64,000 nucleotides of DNA from a virus. Taxonomy: Duplodnaviria > Caudoviricetes. The notes under the pieces are model-generated. The model did no database searches, was not told the DNA's origin, and saw only the letters and a program-made list of their open reading frames with translations. Shown one piece after another: positions 21,054 to 57,606 of this stretch. Location of the stretch: the IMG/VR virus record IMGVR_UViG_3300037195_001552, positions 697 through 64,696 of that record; one strand, given 5' to 3'. The translations under genes were made by a program, and so were the position numbers. How positions within the stretch are numbered: the first letter of the stretch is position 1; each line of letters begins with the position of its first letter.

Positions 21054-22065
21054 CGTCAACGATGCCTTTACCGTAGGGGTGCGTATGTTGCTGTCTGACG
21101 GCTTTCGACAGCCGTCGAGGGTGGGTGAGGTGCTTACCATGGGCGGGCCTGTAACCACCACTTACGAGTGCCCCAGGGAGCGTGTGCTGTTCCACGAGGC
21201 CCGTGACGCCAACCCCTTTTTCCACCTGATGGAAAGCCTGTGGATGCTGGCGGGCCGTGACGATGTTAAGTGGATTTCTGAGTTCTCCTCGGGAATCAGC
21301 CAGTTCAGCGATGATGGTGTATCCTTTCACGGGGCTTACGGGTTTAGGTGGCGTAATCACTTTGACTTTGATCAGCTCAAGTCCATTCAGCATGTTCTGG
21401 AAGAAGATCCTAATAGTCGGCGAGCGATACTCGGCATGTGGGATCCGAACTGCGACCTGGGAGGCTTCGGCAAGGACTACCCCTGTAACTTATCCATAGC
21501 CTTTCGTATTCGGCATGAACGGCTGGATATGACGGTGTTTAATCGTTCCAACGATATCATCTGGGGGGCTTACGGCGCGAACGCGGTGCATATGTCCGTT
21601 CTCCAAGAAATCCTTGCGGGGCTCCTTGGTGTAAAAGTCGGTCGCTACTACCAAGTGTCCAACGACTATCACGCCTACGTCGATGTCATCGGCAAGTTGG
21701 GAGAAGTCCAACCTCATCCAATGTGCCCGTATGATAACGGCACCGTGCGGTTTCATAATATGGTGCCTTACCCAGAGGATTGGTTCAAGGATCTTGAACT
21801 ATTCATAAAAGATGGGGGATACCTTTCGCCTGTTGAATACAGCAACCCGTTTTTCGGTGGTGTCGCTTTGCCGATGATCAGGGCGTGGAGACATTGGAAA
21901 AGGAAACATTTCTTAGACGCCCTTACGGAAGTTGGGATGATAACCGCGCCGGATTGGCGCTTTGCTTGTGACGCATGGATAAGGAGGCGATATGAACGAT
22001 ACGTACAAGCGGATAAGAGCGGGGGGACGCGTACGAAGGTGGCACACGATACCGGTCATCAATGA
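21031..22065 (+). CDS. thymidylate synthase-family enzyme, probable dUMP hydroxymethylase
   Basis: SRRAILGMWDP, catalytic YPCN, RSNDIIWGAYGAN (Asn at the dUMP-specificity position) and HAY. Confidence 0.8.
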   Translation: MRTIHARNVNDAFTVGVRMLLSDGFRQPSRVGEVLTMGGPVTTTYECPRERVLFHEARDANPFFHLMESLWMLAGRDDVKWISEFSSGISQFSDDGVSFHGAYGFRWRNHFDFDQLKSIQHVLEEDPNSRRAILGMWDPNCDLGGFGKDYPCNLSIAFRIRHERLDMTVFNRSNDIIWGAYGANAVHMSVLQEILAGLLGVKVGRYYQVSNDYHAYVDVIGKLGEVQPHPMCPYDNGTVRFHNMVPYPEDWFKDLELFIKDGGYLSPVEYSNPFFGGVALPMIRAWRHWKRKHFLDALTEVGMITAPDWRFACDAWIRRRYERYVQADKSGGTRTKVAHDTGHQ

Positions 22066-38611: not shown

Positions 38612-39079
38612 GTGAAGATATTGGACGGCGTGGAGAAGGGGCTCGTCAACGGGAAAGGGAGGGCGGTGAGTCGGACGTTGTTGGAGGAAACCCTCCACGA
38701 GCTGGAGGGCGATATAGCCAGCGTCGCCGACCGCCTCGGCCTCGATTATATTCCCCTGAATCATCACATTTACAAAGACTATCGCCTCCGGGATATCTGC
38801 CTCGGCTATCGTCAGTCGTTAGTGGACATGGCCGAGGGAGTAGTTCGCGGCGAACTTCGTCAAAGGAGTTTCAAGGCAGCAAAGTTTGTCTTATCAACAT
38901 TGGGAAAAGACCGAGGCTATGTACCGAAAACAGAATCCCAATCAACACAGATAGTCCATAAGACAGAGTCCAAAATGGATCTGACAAAGCTCTCGCCCGA
39001 AAAACTACGCCAGCTACGCGGTCTCGTAGAGGAAGCGAACCAGGAGCCGGTGACGATCGACCAGATCCCCGACGAATAG
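38612..39079 (+). CDS. terS: terminase small subunit (putative)
   Basis: N-terminal HTH-like segment, AAKFVLSTLGKDRGY motif and DLTKLSPEKLRQL tail; AAGGAGG RBS. Confidence 0.65.
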   Translation: MKILDGVEKGLVNGKGRAVSRTLLEETLHELEGDIASVADRLGLDYIPLNHHIYKDYRLRDICLGYRQSLVDMAEGVVRGELRQRSFKAAKFVLSTLGKDRGYVPKTESQSTQIVHKTESKMDLTKLSPEKLRQLRGLVEEANQEPVTIDQIPDE

Positions 39080-39086
39080 CCGACCA

Positions 39087-39114
39087 TCTCAAGATTCGAC
39101 AAGCGCGCATAATA
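39087..39114 (+). repeat. 28-bp direct repeat, copy 1 (copy 2 at 40122-40149)
   Basis: TCTCAAGATTCGACAAGCGCGCATAATA is exact in both copies and heads each ~1-kb duplicated unit. Confidence 0.9.
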
Positions 39115-39332
39115 ATCTAGGGATGATGGATTATCTTTTCAGAGACACCGGTCACGATCACTCTCACGTGTCCATAGAATGTCGCTCGGCAACCATGGAT
39201 TGTCGTTGTCACTCTCTCTTCTTCTCTTCCCTCAGGATTATGCCATAATCCTGACCGGATCATCTCCCCCCCACGCTACGAGAGACATGGGCCGTTACTG
39301 GCACAATCGTCAGGATTTTGGCCATTATCCCG

Positions 39333-39361
39333 TTGCCATGACGCTTGCCATGGGGTACCAT
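39333..39361 (+). promoter_or_regulatory. sigma70-like promoter of paralog A
   Basis: TTGCCA-17 nt-TACCAT. Confidence 0.65.
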
Positions 39362-39412
39362 GGTTACAGTTACATTGCAGTGATGTAACAGCCATGAGAA
39401 AGGATTAATGAC

Positions 39413-39790
39413 ATGGCATCCAAGACCCAAAAGACCGAGACCCCCGCCCCTGCCGTCCGCGCGACGGATCTTACCGCCTGCAAGATCGTGGTCAAGGACC
39501 CCAAGGCGTCCGCCGCCCTGGTGGACCGTCACAGCCGGGCGCGCACCGCGAGAAACCAGCGGTGGCACATCCTGGTCAGCATGGACGGCAAGACCATTGC
39601 CGACTACTACAAGGCGGCGAGGGAGGCTGGCGTCCCGGTCTCGGCCAACAATCCCATCCGGGCCGCGTCCTTGGGGATCATCGGCTTGGTCACCGCGTCG
39701 GGTGACGACTGGACCAAGGCCAATACGGCGGCTGTCCTGAAACACGCACCCGCCGCTGTCCGCAAGCAGTTGGCTGCGTCCGCCAAGTAG
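39413..39790 (+). CDS. small basic protein, paralog A (normal codon usage)
   Basis: 125 aa; AGAAAGG RBS; aligns along its length with 40388-40714. Confidence 0.8.
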   Translation: MASKTQKTETPAPAVRATDLTACKIVVKDPKASAALVDRHSRARTARNQRWHILVSMDGKTIADYYKAAREAGVPVSANNPIRAASLGIIGLVTASGDDWTKANTAAVLKHAPAAVRKQLAASAK

Positions 39791-39802
39791 CCTATCAACC
39801 AC

Positions 39803-39834
39803 GGCCAGGGTCTTCGGACCCTGGCCATCTTTTT
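39803..39834 (+). terminator. intrinsic terminator
   Basis: 10-bp stem GGCCAGGGTC/GACCCTGGCC, UUCG loop, then ATCTTTTT. Confidence 0.8.
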
Positions 39835-39842
39835 GGAGAAGT

Positions 39843-40049
39843 GTGATGAAGCACTCCCGCAAGCCCGGTGTCTTGAGTAAGGACGGCACACCCTACGCGC
39901 CTTCGTCACTGTTCGTCGTTAATAAAGACGGATGGCAGACTCCTTATAACTATACTCCGCAATCTGTCCTTGCCGCGTTTTTGAGCGACAAGGTCGTGAA
40001 GATTATTCTTACGACGGAGGACAATGTGGAGCACACCGTCGTGAAGTAG
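39843..40049 (+). CDS. small hypothetical protein
   Basis: GGAG RBS; bounded by two terminators. Confidence 0.5.
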   Translation: MMKHSRKPGVLSKDGTPYAPSSLFVVNKDGWQTPYNYTPQSVLAAFLSDKVVKIILTTEDNVEHTVVK

Positions 40050-40058
40050 TTTGTCATG

Positions 40059-40088
40059 AGCCCCGCTGTCTATGGACGGCGGGGTTTT
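40059..40088 (+). terminator. intrinsic terminator
   Basis: AGCCCCGCTGTC-TATG-GACGGCGGGGTT followed by TT. Confidence 0.65.
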
Positions 40089-40121
40089 GATTTGCCTAGA
40101 CTGCCGATGAATCGCCGATGG

Positions 40122-40149
40122 TCTCAAGATTCGACAAGCGCGCATAATA
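40122..40149 (+). repeat. 28-bp direct repeat, copy 2
   Basis: Exact match to 39087-39114. Confidence 0.9.
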
Positions 40150-40312
40150 TTCGCATGAGGACGAGAGACGATCGGTCGTCTTCCGATCACGACTACGATA
40201 CACATATCAATGGATCCACCGCCAGCCGCCGGTGTCCGGATTTTAGCATAATCCTGACGCGGACGCTTGCCGCCGGGCAAAAGGTGACGTCCTAATTTTC
40301 GCTGCTATTTTG

Positions 40313-40341
40313 TTGCCATGCCGGGTGCCATGGGCTAACAT
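40313..40341 (+). promoter_or_regulatory. sigma70-like promoter of paralog B
   Basis: TTGCCA-17 nt-TAACAT, entirely inside the GA/TC-free island. Confidence 0.65.
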
Positions 40342-40387
40342 GTACGTACATTGCATATGGCAATGCACACAAGCAAAGGGTAAGCAC

Positions 40388-40714
40388 ATGTTTAACACAT
40401 GCAAAATTACTACCAACAAAAACACGGTTGCCACGTTGGCGGCTGCCGCACGGCCCGGCACGGCCCGTGCCCAGCGGTGGGCCATACTGGCCACTATGGG
40501 CGGCCAAACGGTAGCCGCCTACTACGCCAAGTGCCGGGCGGCGGGTTGCCCGGTAAGTAGTAATAACCCCATACGCGCTGCCGCGCTGGGGGCCATAACG
40601 CTAACCTTGCCCAACGGCACCAATTGGGCAACGGCCAACCCGGCCACGCTGGCCAAACATGCCCCGGCCAGCATACGTAAGGCCATGCTGGCCAAGGCGG
40701 CTGCGGCCAAGTAG
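40388..40714 (+). CDS. small basic protein, paralog B (GA/TC-free, no Asp/Glu)
   Basis: 108 aa from MFNTCK; RBS AAAGGG; TAG stop; homologous to 39413-39790. Confidence 0.8.
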   Translation: MFNTCKITTNKNTVATLAAAARPGTARAQRWAILATMGGQTVAAYYAKCRAAGCPVSSNNPIRAAALGAITLTLPNGTNWATANPATLAKHAPASIRKAMLAKAAAAK

Positions 40715-40722
40715 CCGGGCCA

Positions 40723-40774
40723 GCCGGGCCGGGGGCGCGGTGCCCCCGGCCCGGCACCCCCAAAAAAATTTTGG
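40723..40774. other. 14-bp perfect GC hairpin followed by C5-A7-T4 tract
   Basis: GCCGGGCCGGGGGC-GCGGT-GCCCCCGGCCCGGC, then ACCCCCAAAAAAATTTTGG. Confidence 0.8.
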
Positions 40775-40887
40775 AGATACTTAACTAACTTTTGCATGGC
40801 CGGAATCCCAGAACTTTCGCCCTTGCATCTCCGCCCACCTCCCCCTACCCTTACCCCCTATTCGATCTTCGAAAAACGAAAGATCAC

Positions 40888-41625
40888 ATGTCCGCACTCG
40901 ATAAGATCATTCGTCAACTTCCTTTTGAAAAGCTTCTCAAGCTTTTTAAGTCCACCTCTCGTGGACGAGGCGCCCTTTCCAATCTTTCTCCTGAAGGTAT
41001 CAATTCACTTCGAACCCGATCTCCCAATGAAAGGACAGCACTCAGTACTCCTCGAGAATTCTTGAATCTCGCATACCCTGTTGAAAAATGGAGTTCGCCT
41101 GAAGATAGATTCCTGATAGATCAAATTAAAGACAATTGGGATCAAGGGCTTAATAATATTCCCATACTGGGAATTGAACGATTCCCCATGTCCCATATTA
41201 CAGATCCTTTCATACGCGAACTCTCAAAAGATATCTCACAATATGAAGATGCTTTTGAAATGACAGCAACTGAATCTAACCGTCATCTATTTGATTTAAA
41301 TCTTCGAAAAATGTTTGACAAACGTCGTCAATATCAAGAAAAAGCGTATGAGTCGGATATAGCAGCGGTGACTGGACATGAGGGGCGACATAGGGCAAAA
41401 CTAGTGGCCGAAGAGTACGGTGAAGATTTTCCTTTTATCTTTAATCTTTCCGATGATTTAAATTCCCCCGTATTTTATGACGATAAACTTCTTCCTGTTC
41501 CTCGCATACTCTACGATGAATCATTACCAGCAGACTTTGATCCTTTCAATCTTCCTCTCCCACGAAACATGCCCGATATTCTCGGCGCCCTCCCACGCCC
41601 CACCGACAAGCGCAAGTTCGCCTAA
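40888..41625 (+). CDS. ParB/Srx-like domain protein, array member 1
   Basis: MSALDKIIR start, PREFLNLAYP, IPILG, GHEGRHRA. Confidence 0.6.
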   Translation: MSALDKIIRQLPFEKLLKLFKSTSRGRGALSNLSPEGINSLRTRSPNERTALSTPREFLNLAYPVEKWSSPEDRFLIDQIKDNWDQGLNNIPILGIERFPMSHITDPFIRELSKDISQYEDAFEMTATESNRHLFDLNLRKMFDKRRQYQEKAYESDIAAVTGHEGRHRAKLVAEEYGEDFPFIFNLSDDLNSPVFYDDKLLPVPRILYDESLPADFDPFNLPLPRNMPDILGALPRPTDKRKFA

Positions 41626-41627
41626 CC

Positions 41628-42266
41628 ATGCCCGCCCTTGACAAATTAATTAGACGACTCGCTTCTTCAGAAGTTCTCGAAAAACTTTTGTCCACGCCCC
41701 GTGGCCGACAGGCGCTCTCACTTCTTGATCCACAAGCTCATCAAAATATTCTTCGCCGGGATCCCTATTCCATGCACGCGATTTCATCTCCTCGAGAATT
41801 CCTCGATCTAGCGTATCCCGTCAAGGATTGGAATCACCCCGAGGAAATCGCAAAGATCAAAGCTATCCGTGATAACTGGGGGGCTGGACTTCGTGAAATT
41901 CCCTTCCTCGCTACTCAACGTCACAAAGAATATATGCGAGATACTTTTGATGATCTTGACTACGAAGTATACCCCCCGTCTTTTCTAAAATGGTTGGATA
42001 CCCCACGAAACATGCCTCTTATCGATGATCACCAGGGCAGGCACCGCGCGAAATTGATAGAGCAACAGTACGGCCCTGAACATCCTTTTCTTATTGAGTT
42101 AGAATTAGGTGAAGATGTTTTTTCAAATCCCCAAACCAGGATTTTTCCTGAAAATTATCTAGATCGTATAATTGATTTCCCAGACAAAGATCCCACCCGT
42201 CCCCCTCTCAAGGATATCCTCGGCACTCTCCCTCCCTCCTCCGCTGCCCTAACCGATGTAGCCTGA
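41628..42266 (+). CDS. ParB/Srx-like domain protein, array member 2
   Basis: MPALDKLIR start, PREFLDLAYP, IPFL, DHQGRHRA. Confidence 0.6.
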   Translation: MPALDKLIRRLASSEVLEKLLSTPRGRQALSLLDPQAHQNILRRDPYSMHAISSPREFLDLAYPVKDWNHPEEIAKIKAIRDNWGAGLREIPFLATQRHKEYMRDTFDDLDYEVYPPSFLKWLDTPRNMPLIDDHQGRHRAKLIEQQYGPEHPFLIELELGEDVFSNPQTRIFPENYLDRIIDFPDKDPTRPPLKDILGTLPPSSAALTDVA

Positions 42267-42652
42267 TGCCCGCCCTTGATAAACTTCTTCGTTTACCCCA
42301 AGTTCGAAGGGCCATTGAACGATTGCTCATTGATCCCCCTTCTAATCGCAATCGATATGCGGGAGGTTCGCTAGATTCCAACATATTGTCATTCCATGAA
42401 GATCCCCCGCTTCCCCGACAACGTGCTCCAAAGCTGGGATCTTTTACTCGAGAACTCAAACGAAACTATTCTTCGCCCTTTATGGTTGATAAATCATCCT
42501 CGCCTCCTTCCCCGGCTATGATACAACGGGCGATTGACTTCTCAGATCCGTATATCTTCTATCACGACCGTCCACGACTTCTCGATCTTCCCTCTGACAC
42601 CAATATATCCGATATACTCCCGAATTGGGAAGAATGGCTGAAATCCCAGTGA
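42266..42652 (+). CDS. array member 3 (shares MPALDKL N-terminus, different interior)
   Basis: MPALDKLLR start and a C-terminal SDIL motif like members 1 and 2. Confidence 0.6.
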   Translation: MPALDKLLRLPQVRRAIERLLIDPPSNRNRYAGGSLDSNILSFHEDPPLPRQRAPKLGSFTRELKRNYSSPFMVDKSSSPPSPAMIQRAIDFSDPYIFYHDRPRLLDLPSDTNISDILPNWEEWLKSQ

Positions 42653-43347
42653 CCGTTCTTCCCGGCCCCAACACTCGCCCTTCCCACCCCAGCCCTTTTC
42701 AACTGACTGGACTTTATCGGAAACTTCTCACGGAACTTCCCGCACCGGTCCTTGACACTATTCGAAAAATTATGATTCAACTTGAAAAGGATGCGTTGAA
42801 AAAACGTTCTCCCAGTCTCGAACACATGGGATTCGGTGTTTCTCGCCCCAGCTTCCCCGAACCCCTAGGAATTCAGCGAGGAGCTCCCGGCCAAGTTCAA
42901 ATCCCCGATGAATCTGAAGCTATGGAGTTTCTCACCACCCCCTTTGACCCTGAAACCAGACTTTTCACTGTTCATCCTCATTCAGACATCATGCGAAACG
43001 CAGAGACAAAAGAACTCTTTGAAAACCCGCTCCATGAGTTTTTCTCACCTAGCGATCTTCAGTTCATGGAACACCCCCAACTTCCGAATAGGTTCAACAC
43101 AGAACATTTCAAGTTCAAAGGGCGTGCGCTACCTGAAGTTTCCCCTGGGGATCCCACTATTCGATCATATCGTCCGAAGTATCCGGGCCGTAATCGCCGA
43201 GAACTCGTCGAGAATCTTTTCCCCGAAGGCCGCTGGCTAGATGAACTGGACTATGGTATACCGATCACTTCAGATCCCACCGCTATCGCCAAGCGATGGG
43301 AAGATCTAGCCAAAGACGATTGGTTTGATTATACGATCTTTGAATAA
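42634..43347 (+). CDS. JAB/MPN-like protein, array member 4
   Basis: EHMGFG...FTVHPH...FSPSD; C-terminal DDWFDYTIFE. Confidence 0.55.
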   Translation: MAEIPVTVLPGPNTRPSHPSPFQLTGLYRKLLTELPAPVLDTIRKIMIQLEKDALKKRSPSLEHMGFGVSRPSFPEPLGIQRGAPGQVQIPDESEAMEFLTTPFDPETRLFTVHPHSDIMRNAETKELFENPLHEFFSPSDLQFMEHPQLPNRFNTEHFKFKGRALPEVSPGDPTIRSYRPKYPGRNRRELVENLFPEGRWLDELDYGIPITSDPTAIAKRWEDLAKDDWFDYTIFE

Positions 43348-43363
43348 GGTTAGGAGCTCTCCC

Positions 43364-43777
43364 ATGACTTCCCCCTCCACCACGATCATGATCAACCGCG
43401 AGGATTTCGACGCTCACGCCTCCGATCCCTCAAAATTCGAGTCCTACCTCCGATCCCGTGGGAAACCGCCTACCTTCCCCTACACGACCAACGGTCGTCG
43501 AGTGACTTGGGGACCCCCGGCCCCCACCGACGACGCCCCCACCGACGAAGACCTCGGCGTCGACACGCCCACGGCCCCCGCCCCCACGGGTTCTTCTTCC
43601 TCTGCAACGGCAGACGAGGACGACAAACCGTTGCCCCTGACAGACATAGATTTCACCAAGTTCAACAAGACGCAGCTCCGCGACTGGATCTTCCAGCAAA
43701 CGTCCACTCGTCCGCCGCGCTTCCACAAGAAGGACACTCTCATCGCCACCGCCGTCCAGATCCAAAACGATGGCTAG
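43364..43777 (+). CDS. protein with C-terminal Rho-N/HeH-like helical motif
   Basis: Low-complexity linker, then FTKFNKTQLRDWI...KKDTLIATA. Confidence 0.55.
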   Translation: MTSPSTTIMINREDFDAHASDPSKFESYLRSRGKPPTFPYTTNGRRVTWGPPAPTDDAPTDEDLGVDTPTAPAPTGSSSSATADEDDKPLPLTDIDFTKFNKTQLRDWIFQQTSTRPPRFHKKDTLIATAVQIQNDG

Positions 43778-44405
43778 TCTCCCACCACCCGGCGCACGTC
43801 CTCAGTCACCTCCACCCCTCTACCAGTTGGCAGGGTTCAAACGACGTGCGCTTGAAGACCTTTCAGCCCCGGTGCTGGATGCTATCGCTAAAATTCAAAA
43901 ATTAATATCTCAGGAAAAGAAAATTCTCAATAGAGAATTCTTAGGATATGGATTTCAAGATCCAAAAAACAGTTCTCTTGAAGACATTATATGGGGTCAA
44001 GAAGATAAAGTCTTAGTACTACCGGGTTCGCCGTTCGATATTTTTCAAAAACAGAGCCATTTCGGTAAAAGACCCTTTACCGTTCATAATCACTTGGAAG
44101 GTGAACCTCCTTCAGAAGAAGATCTTAATCAGGCTTTTTGGCCCGACCATAGATCCCGTTTTCGTGGAGAACACTATAATTTTGGGAATCTTTTGAATTC
44201 CACCCCCCGTGCCGAAAGCATTCAGGCTCTTCCGAAAATAGAAAGTTATGATCCTGAATATTTTAGACGATGGAAACGTGGGTTGGATCTAGGTATGGCA
44301 GAAGAAATTTACGGCGAAGACTTTGATCTACCCGACCATGTCATACGTGAAAATCTACGCCGCTTCGCCGATGAAGATTGGTTCAACTACACCGTTTTCG
44401 AATAA
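43770..44405 (+). CDS. JAB/MPN (RadC-like) protein, array member 5
   Basis: REFLGYG...FTVHNHLEGEPPSEED; ends EDWFNYTVFE. Confidence 0.7.
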   Translation: MASLPPPGARPQSPPPLYQLAGFKRRALEDLSAPVLDAIAKIQKLISQEKKILNREFLGYGFQDPKNSSLEDIIWGQEDKVLVLPGSPFDIFQKQSHFGKRPFTVHNHLEGEPPSEEDLNQAFWPDHRSRFRGEHYNFGNLLNSTPRAESIQALPKIESYDPEYFRRWKRGLDLGMAEEIYGEDFDLPDHVIRENLRRFADEDWFNYTVFE

Positions 44406-44407
44406 TC

Positions 44408-45103
44408 ATGGCCTCCCTTCCCCCACCTTCTTATCGCCCCCAGCACCCTGATCTATTTCAGCGGGCGAAGTTTTTGCGGCGAGGATTACAGGACCTTCCT
44501 GCGCCGGTACTAGATGCTATTGCTAAGATCAAAAAGGCGTTGGAACGAGATTTTCGTAATCGTGACATTATCGATCGCGAATATTTCGGGTATGGCTATG
44601 AAGGTACGTCACCCTTATCCAGGATAATTAGGGGTGAAAAAAATGCAGTTGAGATTAAACCGGGCAGTGATGAGCATAATTTCATGACCTTCCCCGAAAG
44701 CCCTGTTCTCGTGCGCCCGGATAGATTCTCCCTTCATAATCATCCTCATTTGCAAGATAAACCGGGTCAAGGATTCATGCTTGGTAATCTAGAACATTCG
44801 AAAAACTTTTCTACGGGGGATATTGAAGGATTCATGTCTCCGCAATTTTCAAATAGATTCAAAACAAATAATTATCTGATGGTGGGTGAAGCCAATGATC
44901 CCGTAACTCCGCTAGGAGCGGAAGCGATTACGTCTCTTAGGCTTAAACCCCATCCTAATCGTTTTCGATCGCAAGAACATCTGTGGAATACAATAGGTCC
45001 ACAGATCTATGGAAAATCTACCCCCCACACACCTGAAGAGGTTCAAAGGCAGTTTCGTGAAAAGGCCCTCGAGGATTACTTTGATTTCACCGTTTTCGAA
45101 TAA
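44408..45103 (+). CDS. JAB/MPN (RadC-like) protein, array member 6
   Basis: REYFGYG...FSLHNHP...NFSTGD; ends EDYFDFTVFE. Confidence 0.65.
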   Translation: MASLPPPSYRPQHPDLFQRAKFLRRGLQDLPAPVLDAIAKIKKALERDFRNRDIIDREYFGYGYEGTSPLSRIIRGEKNAVEIKPGSDEHNFMTFPESPVLVRPDRFSLHNHPHLQDKPGQGFMLGNLEHSKNFSTGDIEGFMSPQFSNRFKTNNYLMVGEANDPVTPLGAEAITSLRLKPHPNRFRSQEHLWNTIGPQIYGKSTPHTPEEVQRQFREKALEDYFDFTVFE

Positions 45104-45105
45104 CG

Positions 45106-45732
45106 ATGGCTAGTCTCCCGCCCCCCGGCTATCGCCCCCAGCACCCTGATCCATTTCAGCGGGCGAAGTTCCTTCGTCGATCTCTTAGAGATATCCCCGC
45201 CCCTGTGCTGGACGCTATCGCCCGAATACAAAAGTTGATCGCACGGGAAAAACTCATCCCCGATCGAGAATTTTTAGGATTTGGTTATCAAGACAAAGGG
45301 CTATTAGGGATACATAAGGGTCAGCAGGATATGATCATGACGCCCCCTAATTCTCCTTACGGTAGATTTCAAACAAAAAATCACCCCACTGGCTCTAAAC
45401 CATTCACCATTCATAATCACCCTGGTGCGGAGCCTCCTTCAGAACAGGACTTTAATGCGGGTTGGAACCCCCCGTTCCCATACAATAAGACTGCCGAACA
45501 CTATCAATTTCCCAGTGATCTAAAGAACTCTCCATTTGTTGAAAGTTTTCAGCAAACACCAAAAACCCGTGAATGGGATCCAAAATCCTTCGAAAGGTGG
45601 CCCCGTGGTATTGACCTAGGCATGGGCGAAACAATCTATGGGGAAGACTTCGATCTACCCGACCATGTCATACGTGAAAACCTACGCCGCCTAGCCGACG
45701 AAGATTGGTTCAACTATACAGTCTTCGAATAA
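45106..45732 (+). CDS. JAB/MPN (RadC-like) protein, array member 7
   Basis: REFLGFG...FTIHNHPGAEPPSEQD; ends EDWFNYTVFE. Confidence 0.7.
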   Translation: MASLPPPGYRPQHPDPFQRAKFLRRSLRDIPAPVLDAIARIQKLIAREKLIPDREFLGFGYQDKGLLGIHKGQQDMIMTPPNSPYGRFQTKNHPTGSKPFTIHNHPGAEPPSEQDFNAGWNPPFPYNKTAEHYQFPSDLKNSPFVESFQQTPKTREWDPKSFERWPRGIDLGMGETIYGEDFDLPDHVIRENLRRLADEDWFNYTVFE

Positions 45733-45735
45733 CAC

Positions 45736-45852
45736 ATGGCCCGCCTCCCCGTCAAAAAGATCATCCCCGTTACAAAGGAGCTCGTAGACGACGCCCGCGA
45801 TTTCTTCTCCCGCATCCAAACCCGTGCCCGAGCCAGCTTTAACAAAGTTTGA
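45736..45852 (+). CDS. small protein (38 aa)
   Basis: MARLPVKKIIPVTKELVDDARDFFSRIQTRARASFNKV* fills the gap exactly up to terL. Confidence 0.4.
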   Translation: MARLPVKKIIPVTKELVDDARDFFSRIQTRARASFNKV

Positions 45853-47430
45853 ATGATGATCTCCGATATCCCCCAGGCTGATCTCGAATATCTCGCCAAT
45901 ACCCTTTCTACGTCCGATATCGACCATGCTCTGCAAACACAGTCCATGCACGAGTTTATCAAGGGCTGCTGGCCGACGATCGAACCCGGTCGCAAATACT
46001 ACGATAATTGGCACATTCAGGCCATCTGCGAGCATCTCGAGGCTGTTGTCCGTGGTGAGATAACCCGGCTCATTATCAACATCCCCCCACGGCATATGAA
46101 GTCTCTCACTTGCGCCGTGGCATTTCCCATGTGGGCCTGGATCCAAAAGCCACACATTCAGTTTCTGTTCGCCAGCTATGCCTCCAGCCTCGCTATTCGT
46201 GACAGTGTTAAATGTCGACGTCTCCTATCCTCCCCCTGGTTTCAGGCAAACTGGGGTGACCGGTTCCATCTCACAGGGGACCAGAACCAGAAGCAACGGT
46301 TTGAGAATAACCACAACGGGCATAGAATATCTACGTCCGTAGGCGGTGCTCTCACCGGCGAAGGTGGAGATATTATAGTCATAGACGACCCGCACAACGT
46401 GAAGGAAGCAGAATCAGACGCCGTGCGGCTGGGCACGACCGAGTGGTGGGACACGGCAGTCCCCAGCCGCCTCAATGATCCCAAGACGGGTGCCTTTGTC
46501 ATCATCATGCAGCGGGTCCACCAGTCTGATCTCACAGGGCACATTCTCAAAAATGCCCCCGACCTTGATGAGTGGACCCACCTGTGCGTCCCCGCGGAAT
46601 TCGAAAACAACCATCCTCATAAGTTCTACACGTCACTAACCACGGCCACCGCCCAGGAAGATCCTCGCAAAGAGGAAGGCGCGCTCCTATGGTCCGAGCG
46701 GTTTGGGCAAAAGGAACTGGATATCCTCAAAACGACGATGGGCAGTTACGCCGCTGCGGGACAGCTTCAGCAACGACCGGCTCCTAAAGGCGGTGGTATT
46801 ATCAAGCGCAAGTGGTGGCGGAAATGGCAGGATCCTCAATTCCCTGAATTTATCTATGTCCTGCAATCATGGGATACGGCCTATTCAGAACAGGATGTGT
46901 TATCCTCATCTTATTCGGCTTGCACCACCTGGGCGGTCTTTCAGTTTGGTTCTCAATATCACTTTATGATAATCCATCGCTATCGCGAGCGGCTTCCGTT
47001 CCCTGAACTGAGGAAACATGCCAAGGAACTGTATGCCGAATACAAGCCCGACGCCGTGCTCATTGAGAAGAAGGCCTCGGGTCAGTCTCTCATACAGGAT
47101 TTAAAGCAAGCTGGAATTCCTGCGTTACCCTATAACCCGGATAAAGATAAGGTGGCTCGTGCTCATGCGGCTTCTGTCTTGCTCGAATCCGGTTTGGTGT
47201 GGCACCCTGAGCGTCGTTGGGCCAATGAAGTTATTGATCATTGTGCCGTTTTCCCAGCCGGTGACGGGACAGATATCGTGGACACAGTCACTCAGGCGCT
47301 GCTCCGATTCAGGGCAATGTGGTTCGCCGTACCACCTGATGACGAAGACTATGATCCCGACATCCCCGATCGCGAAGATCCACTGGCCAACATAATCCAG
47401 TTCCCTGATCAAGAGGCCATCTATGGCTAA
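45853..47430 (+). CDS. terL: terminase large subunit
   Basis: LIINIPPRHMKS Walker A, IIVIDDP Walker B, IIMQRVH, SWDTA nuclease motif, DIVDTVTQAL. Confidence 0.95.
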   Translation: MMISDIPQADLEYLANTLSTSDIDHALQTQSMHEFIKGCWPTIEPGRKYYDNWHIQAICEHLEAVVRGEITRLIINIPPRHMKSLTCAVAFPMWAWIQKPHIQFLFASYASSLAIRDSVKCRRLLSSPWFQANWGDRFHLTGDQNQKQRFENNHNGHRISTSVGGALTGEGGDIIVIDDPHNVKEAESDAVRLGTTEWWDTAVPSRLNDPKTGAFVIIMQRVHQSDLTGHILKNAPDLDEWTHLCVPAEFENNHPHKFYTSLTTATAQEDPRKEEGALLWSERFGQKELDILKTTMGSYAAAGQLQQRPAPKGGGIIKRKWWRKWQDPQFPEFIYVLQSWDTAYSEQDVLSSSYSACTTWAVFQFGSQYHFMIIHRYRERLPFPELRKHAKELYAEYKPDAVLIEKKASGQSLIQDLKQAGIPALPYNPDKDKVARAHAASVLLESGLVWHPERRWANEVIDHCAVFPAGDGTDIVDTVTQALLRFRAMWFAVPPDDEDYDPDIPDREDPLANIIQFPDQEAIYG

Positions 47431-49990: not shown

Positions 49991-50714
49991 TTTCCTCCAA
50001 CACTTGTTTGAACCCGTTGGTGTTGATGTGAATGCTTGGACGAACGCTGTTCTCGATGGGTTGCCTGAAATCGCCGGTATCGCTGGCGACAGTCTTGGTG
50101 AATACGGCAAGGACAAGTATCGCGATTGGGATCGTATTCTACGTTCTGAAGATTTTGGTGCTCTTGGTGAAGAGTATATCGACACTATGGGGGGCAATCT
50201 TTCAGATATTTCCAATTTCGTATTGGATTCAGCATTTCCCGAAGGACGTGGTCATCAAGACATTGAAGGCGATGTCCGTGCTAAGAATGATCTGAAACGA
50301 TTGGGAAAATACGCTGCCGACGGGGCTTTCCTTTATGGTGATGTCCGTCTCTGGCAAGAACGAAAAAAGATTACAGAAAATTGGGATAAAATGGTTCGCG
50401 GAGGTAAGGGAGCTCTTGGCAAACTTGCCCGTCAGGCTTTGAAAACTGTTCCTGGCGTTGGTGCCCTTTCAACTCTTCTCTCTTCTTCTCCTGCTGGTGC
50501 CAATAGTACCATATTCCCTCCGGGCACTTCTCCTGAAATGATGCAGATCATTTCCGATGATCGTAAAAGAGAAGCTCGTAACCAACCAGATATCTTCCGT
50601 CAGTATCTTCGTGACTACAGGCGCAAGCAATACGAAGAAGATTATCTTAGTAGACGATACGCGAATCCCCACGCCTTTCGGCGTCGCACAGCCGGTGCTT
50701 TGGACACATTATGA
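49977..50714 (+). CDS. hypothetical head-module protein
   Basis: 245-aa coupled ORF; VPGVGALSTLLSSSPAG segment. Confidence 0.55.
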   Translation: MAGPDFLQHLFEPVGVDVNAWTNAVLDGLPEIAGIAGDSLGEYGKDKYRDWDRILRSEDFGALGEEYIDTMGGNLSDISNFVLDSAFPEGRGHQDIEGDVRAKNDLKRLGKYAADGAFLYGDVRLWQERKKITENWDKMVRGGKGALGKLARQALKTVPGVGALSTLLSSSPAGANSTIFPPGTSPEMMQIISDDRKREARNQPDIFRQYLRDYRRKQYEEDYLSRRYANPHAFRRRTAGALDTL

Positions 50715-52501
50715 CCACAGGCCCCACCTGGAACCCGTACACCCGACCCATCAATCAATATGGGGTGAACACGGGCGAGCATACCTTTTTAACCTTCCCC
50801 AGTCAGGTTCCTTCTTTGTACGGGCCACCGACACCGACTACCCCCGGTAGCAGCACTCCCAACCCAGACGATGACCCCGGTACGGGCGTAGCGCCGGTTG
50901 ATCCTCATGCACCGGGTGGTACCTACAATCCTTACGGGGGCGACCCTGGCCCCGGAGACATGGGATTTACCAACGCCTATGATCCTGATTTTCCTGATGT
51001 CCAGGGTTACGATACTACTCCTACGTTTGAAGAAATGATGGCCACAATAGCTATCCCAGCCGGGATGATGGTTCCGGGCCTGTCTCTCTGGGGAATGAAC
51101 ACTATTCAGCAGCATAACCCCGAACTCAAAGGCCCCATAGATTATGTCACTGATGAACTGGGTCTTAGTTTCCCCGACCTTAATCTTTCAGATGTTACCG
51201 ACAGCATCGCCAATGCCCTCGGCTTCAACCCCACCACCGAAGACTTCACCGCTGAGTTGGGTGCGATAAATGATCCCCTTGGATATGAACATTCAGTTTC
51301 TGCCTCTGATGTGGTCGCTCATGAAGCTGCCTTTAATGCTGCAAATTCTTTGGGGTATGATATTTCAACCCCTTCTGTACCCGGTTCAGGAACACCTGGA
51401 ACTAATCCTGCAGATCGTGATCCATATGGATACGGTATATCTCATTTTTCAGAAATGTCCGATGATACAGATGAAGCCTTTGCCTATGATCCAAATTTCG
51501 CCTATTCCCCAACGGTTGAATATGGATTAAATGACGAAGCCGGACCAACGGGACCGGGGAGTCTTTTTTCTCTTGAGGAAGCTCAGCAAGATTTTCCTGC
51601 TCAAACCCCAGCTACCTCGGCTCCGGTGGATCTCACAACAGGGATACCAGCCGTTACCTCTGCTCCTCCTGAATATAGCCCCGGTACGGGTGTGATGGGT
51701 CTCCATGATCCTCACAATGTTCAGGCCACGGATGCTTTGTTCGACTATTCAGAAAACTTTGATTCTACTATGGACTATACCGCAGGACCCGCTGATCGTG
51801 ATTTCTACGGCTTTGAGGTTCCCGGCATTTCCGAAACAGAACATGCCGAAATCGAGGCAGCGATGGCCGCTCTTGATCCACACAGTGCTGTCACAGGATT
51901 CGATCACAGCTTTGATGCTTTTTCTGATGACCCCGAAGTAGCGGCTATGAATGCAAATGCCGCCGCCGCTTTGAGCACCTCTCCGGAGGACAGGGCGGCA
52001 GCTCTATCGGCTCTAGGGTTAACCCCTGCGGATCTTGATCAATTTTCCAACATGTCGCTTTCCATAGACGATATCACCAGCGCCCTCAGCAATACTTCCT
52101 TTGATAGAGACAATATCACCGACACACTTTCTAATATTGGTATCGGTGACGATAGTCTTTCGGGAGGAGCAGGATTCGATACTATGTCTGATATGTCAAT
52201 TGCAGATATTCAGGCTGAGATTGATCGTAATAATCAAGCTATTGCCTTTGGTCTAGGTTTGGGTGGTATTGAATATGGTCATCTAGGCGGTCCAAATTCT
52301 TGGGGTGGTTTTGGTCAATCAATAAGTGTAAATGATCAAGCTCATCAAGCAGCTCTTGAAGCTAGTTTGTTTGGAAATATTGATCCTTGGGGCGGGGGCA
52401 GTTCTGCGAGCACCGAACCCGGTACGGGACCAGCGGGTGCTGCTTCTAGCCAATCTGCGGCAGAAGCAGAGGCCGCTGAATGGGGCGGCATGGACTTCTA
52501 G
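50711..52501 (+). CDS. acidic D/S/G/P-rich low-complexity protein (putative internal head protein)
   Basis: 596-aa open frame, almost free of Lys and Arg. Confidence 0.6.
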   Translation: MTTGPTWNPYTRPINQYGVNTGEHTFLTFPSQVPSLYGPPTPTTPGSSTPNPDDDPGTGVAPVDPHAPGGTYNPYGGDPGPGDMGFTNAYDPDFPDVQGYDTTPTFEEMMATIAIPAGMMVPGLSLWGMNTIQQHNPELKGPIDYVTDELGLSFPDLNLSDVTDSIANALGFNPTTEDFTAELGAINDPLGYEHSVSASDVVAHEAAFNAANSLGYDISTPSVPGSGTPGTNPADRDPYGYGISHFSEMSDDTDEAFAYDPNFAYSPTVEYGLNDEAGPTGPGSLFSLEEAQQDFPAQTPATSAPVDLTTGIPAVTSAPPEYSPGTGVMGLHDPHNVQATDALFDYSENFDSTMDYTAGPADRDFYGFEVPGISETEHAEIEAAMAALDPHSAVTGFDHSFDAFSDDPEVAAMNANAAAALSTSPEDRAAALSALGLTPADLDQFSNMSLSIDDITSALSNTSFDRDNITDTLSNIGIGDDSLSGGAGFDTMSDMSIADIQAEIDRNNQAIAFGLGLGGIEYGHLGGPNSWGGFGQSISVNDQAHQAALEASLFGNIDPWGGGSSASTEPGTGPAGAASSQSAAEAEAAEWGGMDF

Positions 52502-52528: not shown

Positions 52529-52714
52529 GTGGCGAGCAAGAAACAAGTTTCGGCGGCGGAGGTTAGGGCAGCGAAGAGCTGGCTGAATCGCCGAAACATT
52601 ACGACGAAGGAAATATCGCCCAAACAGTTTGCTCACGCCGCCAAGGTACTGGACAAGGGTTTCCGCGAGACCCTACAAATTATCGCGGGTGAGCAGACCG
52701 GAGGTCAAGTGTAA
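52529..52714 (+). CDS. small basic protein
   Basis: ISPKQFAHAAKVLDKGFRETL pattern; coupled to the next gene. Confidence 0.55.
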   Translation: MASKKQVSAAEVRAAKSWLNRRNITTKEISPKQFAHAAKVLDKGFRETLQIIAGEQTGGQV

Positions 52715-53568
52715 TGCTCACACCACTTATACCACGCCCGCCCCGGCCAGAGGTCAGCCCTCTCGAGCAGCTTGCACAATTCCGTTTACGTGAAAAATAT
52801 TTGGCAATAATCAAAGATGCCTTGGAAGAATCCAAGGTCAGAAAAGCTATTCGGGCACTACAACGAAAAGCGGCCCTGGCCGCTCAGGGTAGAGGCAAGG
52901 GCTTTGATCCCAATTTTCCTCGTCAGGAATTTGGTGCGCTGGGTATGCGTGATCTTCCTAATCAGGCCATGGGCCAAACTCATTACCGCAAGGGCCAATC
53001 CGGTTCTATCAAACTTCCCCCTCGTGACATGAAGCGTTTGAGAAAATGGAGCGACGAGGGTATTCCTTCTTTTGACATGCACACACATCCCGGTGGAGGT
53101 CCTTTAAGTAGAGCTGATTCTCTTTTCTTCGGTGTTCGCCCCGGTATTGATAACTACATCGTTGAAGGTCCGGGTCAACGTTATCTTGGCCCAGACGATA
53201 CCAACCCCTTTGAAAACTATTTCGGCACGGTTGAACGATACAAATTGCCCAAGACCGAGGAACGATGGACTCGCAACCCAGCAAGTAGGGTACTTCGAAA
53301 AGCCAGTGACGAATTAGTGGATCCTATTCTCCTTGGAGAAGAAGACTTTGCGCCCTTGGTGACAAGACTTAAACAGGAAACGAGTCTTCCTACTGATCGG
53401 GCGCGTCATACACTTGCTCGTGGCGCTCTTGGCGAACTTGCCAAGCGGGATAAATTTGATTATGATCTTTATGATAACCCTGAATTTGTCGAAGAGGCCA
53501 TGCGCCTATTAGACAAAGAAGGTGCCCTCGGACCTTTCCTCCGAATGCTTGAGGATAAAGGTCTCTAG
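52714..53568 (+). CDS. JAB/MPN (RadC-like) protein, remote member of the array family
   Basis: QEFGALG...FDMHTHPGGGPLSRAD; Pro-rich N-terminus and KFDYDLY resemble members 4-7. Confidence 0.65.
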   Translation: MLTPLIPRPPRPEVSPLEQLAQFRLREKYLAIIKDALEESKVRKAIRALQRKAALAAQGRGKGFDPNFPRQEFGALGMRDLPNQAMGQTHYRKGQSGSIKLPPRDMKRLRKWSDEGIPSFDMHTHPGGGPLSRADSLFFGVRPGIDNYIVEGPGQRYLGPDDTNPFENYFGTVERYKLPKTEERWTRNPASRVLRKASDELVDPILLGEEDFAPLVTRLKQETSLPTDRARHTLARGALGELAKRDKFDYDLYDNPEFVEEAMRLLDKEGALGPFLRMLEDKGL

Positions 53569-53850: not shown

Positions 53851-54045
53851 ATGGCTGACGTTTTTCGTGATACTCTTTCCGCTATTCGGGACGAGCGGAA
53901 AGAGCTGGCTGAAGAAATAGCCGACGGTCGTTGTTCAGACTTTGCGGATTATCGTAACAAGTGCGGTATTCGCGAAGGTCTGGGTAATGCAGAAAGAATC
54001 CTAGTTGAAGTCCTGCAGAAAATAGAAGGTGATGATGATGACTGA
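53851..54045 (+). CDS. conserved small head-module protein
   Basis: G.CSDFADYRNKCG..EGL pattern, commonly upstream of GroES-like genes. Confidence 0.65.
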   Translation: MADVFRDTLSAIRDERKELAEEIADGRCSDFADYRNKCGIREGLGNAERILVEVLQKIEGDDDD

Positions 54046-54388
54046 CTCTTTCTTGCCCCGACCACAGGGCTGGAAGATCTTGATCAAGAAGCACAAACCC
54101 AAGGAAAAGACAGAAGGCGGTATTCTTCTACCGGATATGAGCAAAGATGCAGAGGGTTACCTGTCCGTTACCGGGCAGGTCGTGGCTCTTGGCCCGCTTT
54201 GCTATACCGATCGGAAGACCGGCGAACCTTGGTCGAGTGGCCCTTGGTGCAAGGTCAAGGATTGGGTGATCATACCCAAATTTACACAGTTTAAGATGGA
54301 TATTGATGATGATGAGTATCGCATTGTCAATGATGATGAGATCATTGCAACCATCAAGGACCCCACGCGGATCAAGGTCTACGCCTGA
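54029..54388 (+). CDS. groES: GroES/Cpn10-like co-chaperonin
   Basis: PQGWKILI, KTEGGILLP, GQVVALGPLCY, YRIVNDDEIIA. Confidence 0.85.
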   Translation: MMMMTDSFLPRPQGWKILIKKHKPKEKTEGGILLPDMSKDAEGYLSVTGQVVALGPLCYTDRKTGEPWSSGPWCKVKDWVIIPKFTQFKMDIDDDEYRIVNDDEIIATIKDPTRIKVYA

Positions 54389-54412: not shown

Positions 54413-54691
54413 ATGGCTACCGGAATGGATTTCAGCTCGGCCCTCCACGGGCTCAAAACTGGACACAAAATGGCCCGTGAGGGCTGGAACGGCAAGGGGA
54501 TGTTCATCTTCCTCGTACCCGGCAGTGTCTTCAAGGTCAATCGCCCCCCGCTTTTGGGCATCTACCCCGAAGGTACCGAAATCAACTATCATGGTCACAT
54601 CGACATGAAGACGGCCGACAACGTGGTCGTCCCCTGGCTGTGCAGCCAGACCGACATGTTGGCCGAGGATTGGGAGATTGTCGATGACTGA
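54413..54691 (+). CDS. DUF2829 / Tad2-family putative nucleotide-signal sponge
   Basis: MDFSSAL..LK.G.K.AR.GWNGKGMF...PWLCSQTDMLAEDW. Confidence 0.8.
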   Translation: MATGMDFSSALHGLKTGHKMAREGWNGKGMFIFLVPGSVFKVNRPPLLGIYPEGTEINYHGHIDMKTADNVVVPWLCSQTDMLAEDWEIVDD

Positions 54692-56700: not shown

Positions 56701-57606
56701 ATGGCACAGAATCGCGCGCAATTTGCAAAGCAACTTGAGCCGGGTCTTAACGCCCTGTTCGGTCTCACCTACAAGCAGTATCCGAATCAGTGGAAGACTG
56801 TCTTCGACTTTAATACGTCGGAAAAGGCGTTTGAGGAAGATGTCCTGATGGAGGGCTTCGGCGAAGCTCCCGTCAAGGAGGAAGGCTCGTCTATCCAGTA
56901 TGATACGGCTGCTGAAGTATGGACAGCCCGCTATAATCATGAAACCATCGCCCTGGCCTTCTCGATCACTGAGGAAGCCGAGGAAGATGGTCTTTATGGT
57001 TCCTTGGCAAAGAAGTACGTCAAGGCGCTGGCTCGCTCCATGAGTCACACCAAGGAGATCAAGGCCGCAAACATCCTGAACAATATGTTCACGTCCGGTA
57101 CGGGCGGCGACGGTGTTGTTCTTGGTTCGGCCGCTCACCCGACCACGGGTGCTGGAAACCAGTCGAATATCCTGGCGACGGCTGCGGATCTTACGGAAAC
57201 CTCGCTCGAGACTCTACTTATTCAGATCTCGAACATTAAGGATGACCGTGGTATTCCCGCTGCTGCCATTGGTACAAAACTGGTTATTCCGCCCGCTCTG
57301 GTCTTCATCGCCGAACGCGTCCTGGGGTCGAACCTCCAGAACGACACGGCTAACAACGCCATCAATGCGAACAACAGTCTCGGCATGTTGCCGGGTGGCG
57401 TTCACGTGATGCAGCGCCTTACCGACACCGATGCTTGGTTCATCTGCACCGATGTCATGGACGGTCTCAAGCACTTTGAGCGCCTTGCCATGAAACGCGG
57501 TATGGAGGGCGACTTCGAAACCGGCAACGTTCGGTACAAGTGTCGTGAACGGTACAGCTTTGGCTGGACCAACTGGCGTGGTATCTTCGGTACCGCTGGC
57601 GGTTAA
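56701..57606 (+). CDS. major capsid protein (Mu gpT-like family)
   Basis: QLEPGLNALFG, SEKAFEE, ARYNHETIALAFSITEEA, GDFETGNVRYKCRERYSFG. Confidence 0.9.
   Translation: MAQNRAQFAKQLEPGLNALFGLTYKQYPNQWKTVFDFNTSEKAFEEDVLMEGFGEAPVKEEGSSIQYDTAAEVWTARYNHETIALAFSITEEAEEDGLYGSLAKKYVKALARSMSHTKEIKAANILNNMFTSGTGGDGVVLGSAAHPTTGAGNQSNILATAADLTETSLETLLIQISNIKDDRGIPAAAIGTKLVIPPALVFIAERVLGSNLQNDTANNAINANNSLGMLPGGVHVMQRLTDTDAWFICTDVMDGLKHFERLAMKRGMEGDFETGNVRYKCRERYSFGWTNWRGIFGTAGG

Follow-up and report, generated by a model that had tools for sequence, protein, structure and literature searches.

A divergent, recurrently amplified family of JAB/MPN (JAMM-motif) proteins beside the terminase gene of a marine phage

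In the ubiquitin-like immune pathways of bacteria (type II CBASS, cyclic-oligonucleotide-based antiphage signaling system, and Bil), it is JAB/MPN enzymes that carry out deconjugation. What, then, are five diverged genes with a JAB-type metal motif doing in a single phage genome, and what might their products cut? The genes lie in a 64,000-nucleotide stretch of DNA (hereafter, the window) that covers positions 697 to 64,696 of IMG/VR virus record IMGVR_UViG_3300037195_001552 (Duplodnaviria; Caudoviricetes), and is thus nearly all of this 64,696-bp record, which is rated complete by CheckV. Four of the genes (c1–c4) stand in tandem upstream of the gene for the large terminase subunit (TerL), and the fifth (c5) is remote from them (Table 1). 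An earlier note on this DNA, made from the letters alone, had described an expanded family of JAB/MPN (JAMM-motif) proteins next to the terminase, and fold, motif register and profile–profile evidence agree with that description. The family is a previously unrecognised and very divergent branch of the JAB/MPN zinc-hydrolase fold, and is distinguished by recurrent amplification, mobility between genomic slots and a hypervariable active-site loop.

The five paralogs and their probable assignment to the JAB/MPN fold

The earlier note had read an E...HxH...SxxD motif in four tandem open reading frames (ORFs) and in one remote ORF, and all five ORFs are as described. The catalytic E, H, H, S and D are present in 5/5 window copies, and E, F..HxH and D are invariant in the five-way alignment of these copies; c2–c5 show 24–33% identity to c1. 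When the four homologs known from outside the window (see below) are included, the nine-sequence alignment has nine invariant columns, and five of the nine are Glu55, His103, His105, Ser112 and Asp115 (c4 numbering). As judged from this alignment, the presence of the JAMM residues among the invariant columns is far from chance. The predicted site of c4 is encoded by codons at about 45268–45270 and 45412–45450. Whereas the residues of the motif were correctly described, its spacing was not. HxH and S are separated by x(6) in the short-loop copies (c2 and c4), instead of the canonical x(7), and by x(22–23) in c1 and c3, which carry an insertion of 16–17 residues between HxH and SxxD.

A Pro-rich leader, a (L/S)PAPVLD.I motif and a C-terminal (D/E)D(W/Y)F(D/N)(Y/F)T(V/I)FE tail, also listed in the earlier note as common to the four tandem ORFs, are borne out in the alignment and are recognisable in c5. 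The leader is carried by the outside homologs too, and is a family-wide domain feature rather than a tag common to other phage proteins. A role of the terminal motifs as packaging signals common to the neighboring MPALDKL family (see section Genome Layout and Neighboring Genes) or to other proteins was considered and rejected, because the motifs occur only in members of the JAB family and the two families are dissimilar.

The tandem genes abut or overlap (TAAnnATG junctions), and 120 nt separate the end of c4 from the TerL gene. Between c2 and c4, the number of synonymous substitutions per site (dS) is saturated at about 2, and the number of nonsynonymous substitutions per site (dN) is 0.25 at the N-terminus, 0.52 in the core and 0.04 at the C-terminus. 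Saturated synonymous sites, together with a dN that is low at both ends and moderate in the core, mark the copies as old paralogs kept by purifying selection rather than repeats of recent origin. Because of this saturation, recent gene conversion is also rejected as the cause of the conserved termini over most of the gene's length, although the C-terminal dS of c2 and c4 is lower (0.95) and would allow for some exchange at a later time.

An HHpred-type check, which the earlier note had proposed, was run as a profile–profile comparison; it matched both RadC and the Prok-JAB domain of lambda tail protein K (lambda-K), with clean controls. The profile of 17 family members (see below) aligns with lambda-K Prok-JAB over 58 columns, from the E motif to SxxD (Prob 78%, P = 1.8e-5), and places E, HxH, S and D in register; the Glu motif reads rEF.g.G in the family and AESCGF in lambda-K. 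The same profile aligns with RadC over about 60 columns (P = 1.3e-4; official hhalign, P = 2.7e-4). With the nine-member profile, a score of 32.8 is obtained against both RadC (P = 1.7e-4) and lambda-K-type Prok-JAB (P = 1.8e-4), and scores of the family against JAB profiles are 33.8–39.1 with the 17-member profile. RadC against lambda-K, the positive control, scores 33.7 (P = 3.3e-5); on these profiles, the matches of the family to RadC and lambda-K appear as strong as those of the two families to each other. Negative controls (reversed templates, 20 column-shuffled templates and a neighboring unrelated family) score at most 16.6. The RadC and Prok-JAB reference profiles drew only on enterobacterial sequences with at least 64–71% identity, and the HH probabilities are conservative because of this narrow diversity.

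Language-model neighbors of the core (residues 28–140) point the same way: the only Pfam-labelled clusters among them are Prok-JAB, DUF4329 (Tox-JAB-2) and Toxin-JAB1. By contrast with these profile-level and embedding-level matches, hidden Markov models (HMMs) of PF14464 (Prok-JAB) and PF04002 (RadC) found nothing in the six-frame translation of the genome, and no member reaches the gathering score of PF14464, PF04002, PF01398, DUF4329 or Toxin-JAB1. The family therefore appears to belong to the JAB superfamily but to none of these curated Pfam families.

Structure prediction gives a topology of the expected kind. In the AlphaFold2 model of c4, built from the nine-sequence alignment, residues 30–105 have predicted local distance difference test (pLDDT) scores of 73–88, and the modelled order is a helix, a strand from Glu55, a hairpin, a helix, a strand ending in HxH, a helix from Ser112/Asp115 and a strand. 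A model of c1 from the five-sequence alignment reached a pLDDT of 42. When the c4 model was compared with 48,161 chains by VIA-align, the top match was PfJAMM1 (Z = 6.4; root-mean-square deviation, 3.7 Å over 111 residues), followed by eIF3f, CSN6, Rpn11, RadC (2qlc, Z = 5.7) and subunits of the BRCC36 complex, and at lower scores by a bacterial complex of a ubiquitin-like protein (Ubl) and its deubiquitinase (8tyy, Z = 5.3) and by Cap3 (9ild, Z = 4.7). The other matches are mostly cytidine- or guanine-deaminase-type proteins and FdhD, which have folds of the deaminase-like class, a class that includes JAB (Iyer et al., 2011, PMC3239186). Foldseek against PDB returned a list dominated by the same JAB/MPN proteins, including JAMM1, Rpn11, CSN5/6 and RadC, and Foldseek against BFVD returned phage RadC, JAB, MPN and “metalloprotease” proteins and some “minor capsid proteins” (probabilities up to 0.99, E about 1e-2). 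Taken singly, these scores lie within the noise; for such a model, it is the coherence of the match lists that would count.

Prok-JAB/JAMM proteins (PF14464, the N-terminal MPN domain of lambda tail protein K; archaeal JAMM1/AF2198) have the same E...HxH...S..D order and secondary-structure context as the family, and include its best profile–profile match (lambda-K) and its top structural match (PfJAMM1). The family differs from them in its His-to-Ser loop, which is one residue shorter in the short-loop copies or has insertions of up to about 20 residues, and in the addition of a conserved Pro-rich and helical N-terminus and a C-terminus of about 70 residues that ends in a D-W-F-D-Y-type motif. 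Unlike lambda-K, it has no fused NlpC/P60 domain and its genes lie outside the tail module.

Together, the motif, model topology, structure searches, profile–profile comparison and language-model neighbors make membership of the JAB/MPN+ (JAMM) superfamily highly probable. The converse explanation is that E, HxH and SxxD arose by chance in an unrelated orphan fold and that the proteins are not JAB-type enzymes. The negative result of all curated sequence models, the individual non-significance of the structural scores and the weakness of the c4 model outside residues 30–105 would agree with such a coincidence, but five independent kinds of evidence lead to the same superfamily, the profile alignment matches E, HxH, S and D column by column with those of a genuine Prok-JAB family and the negative controls are clean, all of which makes it very improbable.

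Distribution, variable slots and recurrent amplification

The family is rare. When 1.84 billion representative proteins were searched exhaustively with a HMMER profile, four homologs outside the window (P0006–P0009) came up, all of them metagenomic. A word-indexed search of 5.8 billion clusters brought back nothing but the products of the window itself, and word-index searches overall added P0008 alone. No hit was obtained by tblastn with P0007 against 50,697 phage records, and no relatives were confirmed by motif-anchored scans with the family alignment (IMG/VR, metagenomes of the Joint Genome Institute (JGI) and GTDB genomes) or by one IMG/VR scan with P0006. Further members came to light only by TerL anchoring, followed by an iterated HMM search over 1.6 Mb of flanking DNA, which brings the family to 17 distinct members, all on phage contigs and most of them with a TerL of the same marine clade. 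TerL of the window is 57% identical to that of Roseobacter phages CRP-901 and CRP-902, and TerL proteins at 57–72% identity occur on about 160 marine metagenomic or viromic contigs (TARA, and deep-sea and coastal JGI samples). The earlier note had called the presence of five diverged copies in one phage unusual. With four outside homologs in 1.84 billion proteins, the expansion is indeed unusual, but it is not unique: a TARA phage has its own 3 + 1 set, so the expansion is recurrent.

Members occupy three slots. The slot between the TerS-like gene and the TerL gene holds the four tandem copies of the window, one copy in contig L010 and three tandem copies in the TARA contigs L185/L186; the slot between TerL and portal genes holds a copy in L100; and the slot between p61 and a small ORF plus the GroES gene holds c5 of the window, P0008 and copies in L102, L103/L105, L183 and L185/L186. 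Positional orthologs of c5 are P0008 and the genes in L102, L103, L183 and L185 (15010–15969). The distance between the TerS-like and TerL genes is 26 bp in L188, 2.2–4.9 kb in six other contigs, 6.8 kb in the window and 8.4 kb in L185/L186. The content of this region is largely unrelated between phages, and the JAB gene is the sole item common to the islands of L010 and the window. L190, L192 and L193 have nothing in the p61–GroES slot, and more distant relatives have unrelated proteins there, among them a 2-oxoglutarate-Fe(II) oxygenase. CRP-902 has no family member; its gp63, which occupies the p61–GroES slot, was tried as a candidate and is not a relative. Because all three slots are variable and relatives such as CRP-902 lack the family, the JAB genes are accessory cargo of hypervariable packaging/head slots, not core morphogenetic genes.

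The TerS-like–TerL junction is an insertion hot spot of this phage clade more generally (the window island, L010, L101, L102, L182, L185/L186, L188, L191, L194 and L195).

A gene for a protein with a Thoeris anti-defence 2 (Tad2)-like domain lies in the slot next to c5 (Table 1). None of the 161 related TerL-anchored loci has an equivalent gene, and in the syntenic contig L007 the GroES gene is followed directly by the next gene, without a Tad2-like gene. The slots can evidently carry counter-defence candidates.

In a phylogenetic tree of the family, the pre-GroES clade stands apart from the rest (support 80/97), c2 and c4 are sisters (98/96), as are c1 and c3 (85/61), and the three L185 copies form a clade of their own (100/99). 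The columns used for the tree leave out the 16–17-residue insertion of c1 and c3. Because the L185 trio forms its own clade, tandem amplification has been independent in two phage lineages, with four copies in the window and three in the TARA phage. The insertions of c1 and c3 are homologous, and long-loop genes alternate with short-loop genes along the array (long, short, long, short), which is best explained on sequence grounds as the duplication of a gene pair with one gene of each type. Across the pre-TerL copies, the loop from HxH to S has 6, 13–15 or 22–26 residues. Because this variable loop adjoins the predicted metal site, the main diversification would touch the probable substrate-access region. 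End branches are long (about 1 substitution per site), which indicates fast divergence.

Two relatives in the pre-GroES lineage have lost catalytic residues. In L185/L186 (15010–15969) and L183 (6494–7525), the catalytic E and HxH are replaced (e.g., by RSR), and both proteins keep their length, position and C-terminal motif. They are presumably inactive and may be MPN(-)-like pseudoenzymes.

These two relatives bear on an explanation in which the proteins do not act on the host at all, but serve as head or packaging maturation peptidases or as non-catalytic MPN-type scaffolds or partners. The family occurs throughout in the company of TerS, TerL, portal, GroES and head genes, the relatives without catalytic residues recall the MPN- partner subunits of eukaryotic JAMM complexes in keeping the rest of the protein and its position, and the alternation of long-loop and short-loop genes would suit heterodimers. 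A comparable case is that of the actinophage JAB “metalloprotease” genes, which encode a small JAB among terminase and head genes and are represented among the BFVD matches by Mycobacterium and Gordonia phage entries; however, those genes are single-copy and fixed in position and have no detectable sequence relation to the family, which has 0–5 copies in variable slots. An assembly role is also difficult to reconcile with close relatives that manage without the family (CRP-902 has none, L188 has a gap of 26 bp, and the slot is empty in L190, L192 and L193), with a copy number of 0 to 5, with the presence of a separate gene for a head protease or major capsid protein (MCP), and with a branch length that is atypical for core assembly factors. 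We regard it as quite unlikely.

Predicted chemistry and candidate roles

The reading that we favor, to which we give about an even chance, is that the proteins are active JAMM hydrolases that serve as diversified, host-directed accessory enzymes, most likely as peptide or isopeptide hydrolases. We thereby infer a catalytic activity, a protein substrate and a counter-defence role for the family. Glu55 would be the general base that activates a water molecule, His103, His105 and Asp115 would be ligands of the zinc ion, and Ser112 would stabilise the transition state. Each window copy keeps the full catalytic set and is predicted to be an active metallohydrolase. The enzymes would be co-expressed with the late genes and would cleave peptide or isopeptide bonds in differing host or host-modified targets, and the copies together might constitute a counter-defence or host-takeover battery of diversified specificity. 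A complete catalytic site, occurrence in hypervariable slots only, two independent amplifications and diversification by the active site make up the signature that would be expected of a host-directed arms-race enzyme. The suggestions of the earlier note, a battery of anti-defence deconjugases or a set of ejected DNA-acting enzymes, plausibly fit variable accessory slots.

To our knowledge, no function has been demonstrated for stand-alone JABs on mobile elements. Every JAB enzyme that has been characterised biochemically is a peptidase or an isopeptidase (PMC5512222, PMC3482391). Solo RadC/JAB and ParB-like domains have been described, in comparative work, as conflict effectors of phages and conjugative elements, and a role in nucleic-acid processes has been proposed for RadC-type JABs (PMC5512222, PMC3482391). 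Tox-JAB-type JABs have the same E, HxH, S and D set, are divergent, have no Ubl partner and belong to conflict systems, and versions of them have been noted in Caudovirales (PMC3482391); the present family differs from them in that it has no HMM match, no fused RHS or secretion domain and no gene for an immunity-like partner that could be identified.

Several observations weigh against the host-directed hydrolase reading. On the side of the fold, none of the nine members has a Pfam match at E values up to 10, and searches of Pfam, PHROGs, PADLOC and PDB sequence profiles with the 5-, 9- and 17-member alignments gave no match. The c4 model has a mean pLDDT of 56, with scores below 50 for the S/D helix (residues 108–128) and a poor C-terminal third; because residues 108–128 are poorly modelled, the geometry of the metal site is beyond the reach of the model. 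The best Z score (6.4) is within the range that VIA-align reports for models that have no true matches, and no Foldseek E value is below 1e-2. On the side of function, the phage encodes neither a ThiF-type E1 enzyme nor a ThiS-type Ubl, so any Ubl-type substrate would be host-derived, and no link between the proteins and any defence system was found. The motif resembles that of RadC-type JABs, which may not be peptidases, and the pre-GroES lineage at least can probably act without catalysis, as two relatives in it lack the catalytic residues.

The resemblance to RadC underlies an explanation in which the same metal site acts on DNA, RNA or nucleotides, with host DNA or a modified-DNA step as the target. 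The outside homologs read HNHP(S/G)G..S..D, the wording closest to the RadC signature; in full, HNHP(S/G)GG.FS..D is similar to HNHPSG...PS..D of RadC, but is one residue shorter and has no Pro before Ser. The strand that follows the S/D helix reads (D/N)(H/N)(Y/F)(I/V), comparable with DH(L/I)(I/V) in RadC, and the profile and structure searches add the RadC alignment of about 60 columns (P from 1.3e-4 to 2.7e-4), the match to 2qlc (Z = 5.7) and phage “RadC” proteins in BFVD. RadC-like JABs (PF04002; E. coli YicR, YkfG, YfjY and YeeS), which also occur as solo copies on phages and mobile elements, are likewise stand-alone and have no Ubl partner. The RadC and Tox-JAB clades have been predicted to comprise nucleases with no groove for a Ubl tail (PMC5512222, PMC3482391), and the phage itself encodes a 5-hydroxymethyldeoxyuridine (5-hmdU) DNA kinase domain and a thymidylate-synthase homolog. 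However, nuclease activity has been demonstrated for no RadC-type JAB, and the proposal rests on context (PMC5512222); lambda-K Prok-JAB was matched better than RadC (P = 1.8e-5 versus 1.3e-4); and the family lacks the N-terminal helix-hairpin-helix (HhH) of RadC or any other DNA-binding domain, has no match to PF04002 and carries terminal extensions of its own. In addition, its genes lie in the packaging/head module, unlike typical RadC contexts, and not with the replication and modification genes of the phage. A nucleic-acid substrate is therefore unlikely in our estimation.

A more specific alternative, a form of the deconjugase idea of the earlier note, concerns bacterial ubiquitin-like immunity: the copies would strip Bil-type Ubl tags from virion proteins or reverse conjugation of CD-NTases (cGAS/DncV-like nucleotidyltransferases) by Cap2, each paralog being suited to a different host system. 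The JAMM catalytic set is intact in 5/5 window copies, and Cap3 (9ild) and 8tyy are among the structural matches. The genes share a strand with the structural genes and are separated by short gaps or none, which would allow the enzymes to be produced together with virion proteins; repeated amplification and the hypervariability of the loop by the active site agree with an arms race, and a Tad2-like anti-defence candidate lies nearby. Cap3 of type II CBASS and BilC-type deubiquitinases belong to the same superfamily and have the same predicted chemistry. Nevertheless, at the level of sequence the family matches none of the Cap3 or Bil JAB models in PADLOC, its genes are phage-encoded, multi-copy and not adjacent to genes for E1, E2, Ubl or CD-NTase, and its structural scores to Cap3 and 8tyy are no better than those to any other JAB. 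Literature searches turned up no phage JAB with an anti-defence function and no precedent for a counter-defence family of phage “DUBs” (deubiquitinases). The missing PADLOC match and operon lower the probability that a member is a Cap3 or BilC, but not the probability that it could cleave similar conjugates. Overall, such deconjugation is a plausible assignment, but one of low probability. The same holds for its fuller form, in which phage isopeptidases undo Ubl-conjugation immunity (Bil virion tagging or Cap2-dependent priming of CD-NTases) as swappable, amplified cargo, possibly as long-/short-loop heterodimers, with the loop tracking host Ubl systems; this form is likewise a tentative proposal.

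The family offers a compact, testable set of natural variants (long-loop, short-loop and two catalytically dead copies) for asking what phage JABs cut. Should the function turn out to be mundane, or the proteins to be inactive, what is left is one more divergent family, albeit a new one, in a well-known superfamily.

Genome layout and neighboring genes

The left half of the genome carries replication genes, which encode SNF2 and UvrD helicases, an archaeo-eukaryotic primase (AEP) and a family A DNA polymerase; TerS-like, TerL, portal, GroES and head genes follow from about 38.6 kb on (Table 1). No tRNAs were found in the phage.

Table 1. Positions in the window of the JAB paralogs, of slot landmarks and of other genes mentioned in the text.
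Feature	Position	Strand	Description
Primase-like protein	14844-16394	+	AEP domain match
5-hmdU DNA kinase helical domain; thymidylate-synthase homolog	18540-19394; 20920-22065	+	PF18723, E = 4e-41; PF00303, E = 6e-21
TerS-like gene	38612-39079	+	Left edge of variable island; homolog in L188 is 26 bp from TerL
Variable island (hot spot)	39080-45852		Between TerS-like and TerL genes
Two small paralogs at island start	39413-39790; 40310-40714	+	Weak DUF6303 match, E = 0.003
Three tandem MPALDKL paralogs	40888-42652	+	Just upstream of JAB array
JAB paralog c1	42625-43347	+	240 amino acids (aa); TTG start at 42625, ATG alternative at 42634; long-loop; HPH, 16-residue insertion, FSPSD
Unrelated ORF inside array	43325-43777	+	150 aa; between c1 and c2
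JAB paralog c2	43770-44405	+	211 aa; short-loop (HNH ... PSEED); sister of c4
JAB paralog c3	44408-45103	+	231 aa; long-loop; HNH, 17-residue insertion, FSTGD; groups with c1
JAB paralog c4	45106-45732	+	208 aa; short-loop; copy used for structure model
Large terminase TerL	45853-47430	+	PHROG 38, E = 1.6e-94; right edge of variable island
Acidic protein	50711-52501	+	596 aa; low-complexity
p61	52529-52714	+	Conserved 61-aa gene; left flank of second JAB slot; in 55 related loci
JAB paralog c5	52714-53568	+	284 aa; HTHPGGGPLSRAD; remote; pre-GroES lineage
GroES-like co-chaperonin	54029-54388	+	Right landmark of second JAB slot
Tad2-like protein	54413-54691	+	92 aa; PF11195, E = 4e-26; PHROG 1048/872; between GroES and next head-module gene
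Head protease/MCP-type gene	56701-57606		Separate from JAB copies

The array is interrupted by an unrelated ORF of 150 aa, in which the GC content at third codon positions (GC3) is 0.74 versus 0.34–0.45 in the JAB copies. Weak homologs of this ORF occur upstream of TerL in L180, L181 and L183, and its C-terminal segment resembles a helix-extended-helix (SAP/Rho_N-like) motif, as judged by eye.

The three paralogs just upstream of the array start with MPALDKL and end with DILG.LP, and two of them contain H(E/Q)GRHRAKL. This family is unrelated to the JAB family, has no match in Pfam, PHROG or PDB and lacks homologs in any of the related loci, and a ParB/Srx-like identity was not confirmed. The two small DUF6303-like paralogs at the start of the island have homologs in the same island of L185/L186, L189, L102, L104 and L184, which gives this small family a wider distribution in the hot spot than the JAB genes have.

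Downstream of the portal gene and a 245-aa ORF lies the gene for the 596-aa protein, which is highly acidic. Neither this protein nor the adjoining 245-aa ORF has a homolog in the related loci or a family match; both may be internal or ejection proteins. In the replication half, the primase-like protein has a match to PF22548, the AEP domain found in the TOTE conflict system (E = 1e-12). The presence of the 5-hmdU DNA kinase domain together with the thymidylate-synthase homolog suggests that the phage DNA contains hypermodified thymidine.

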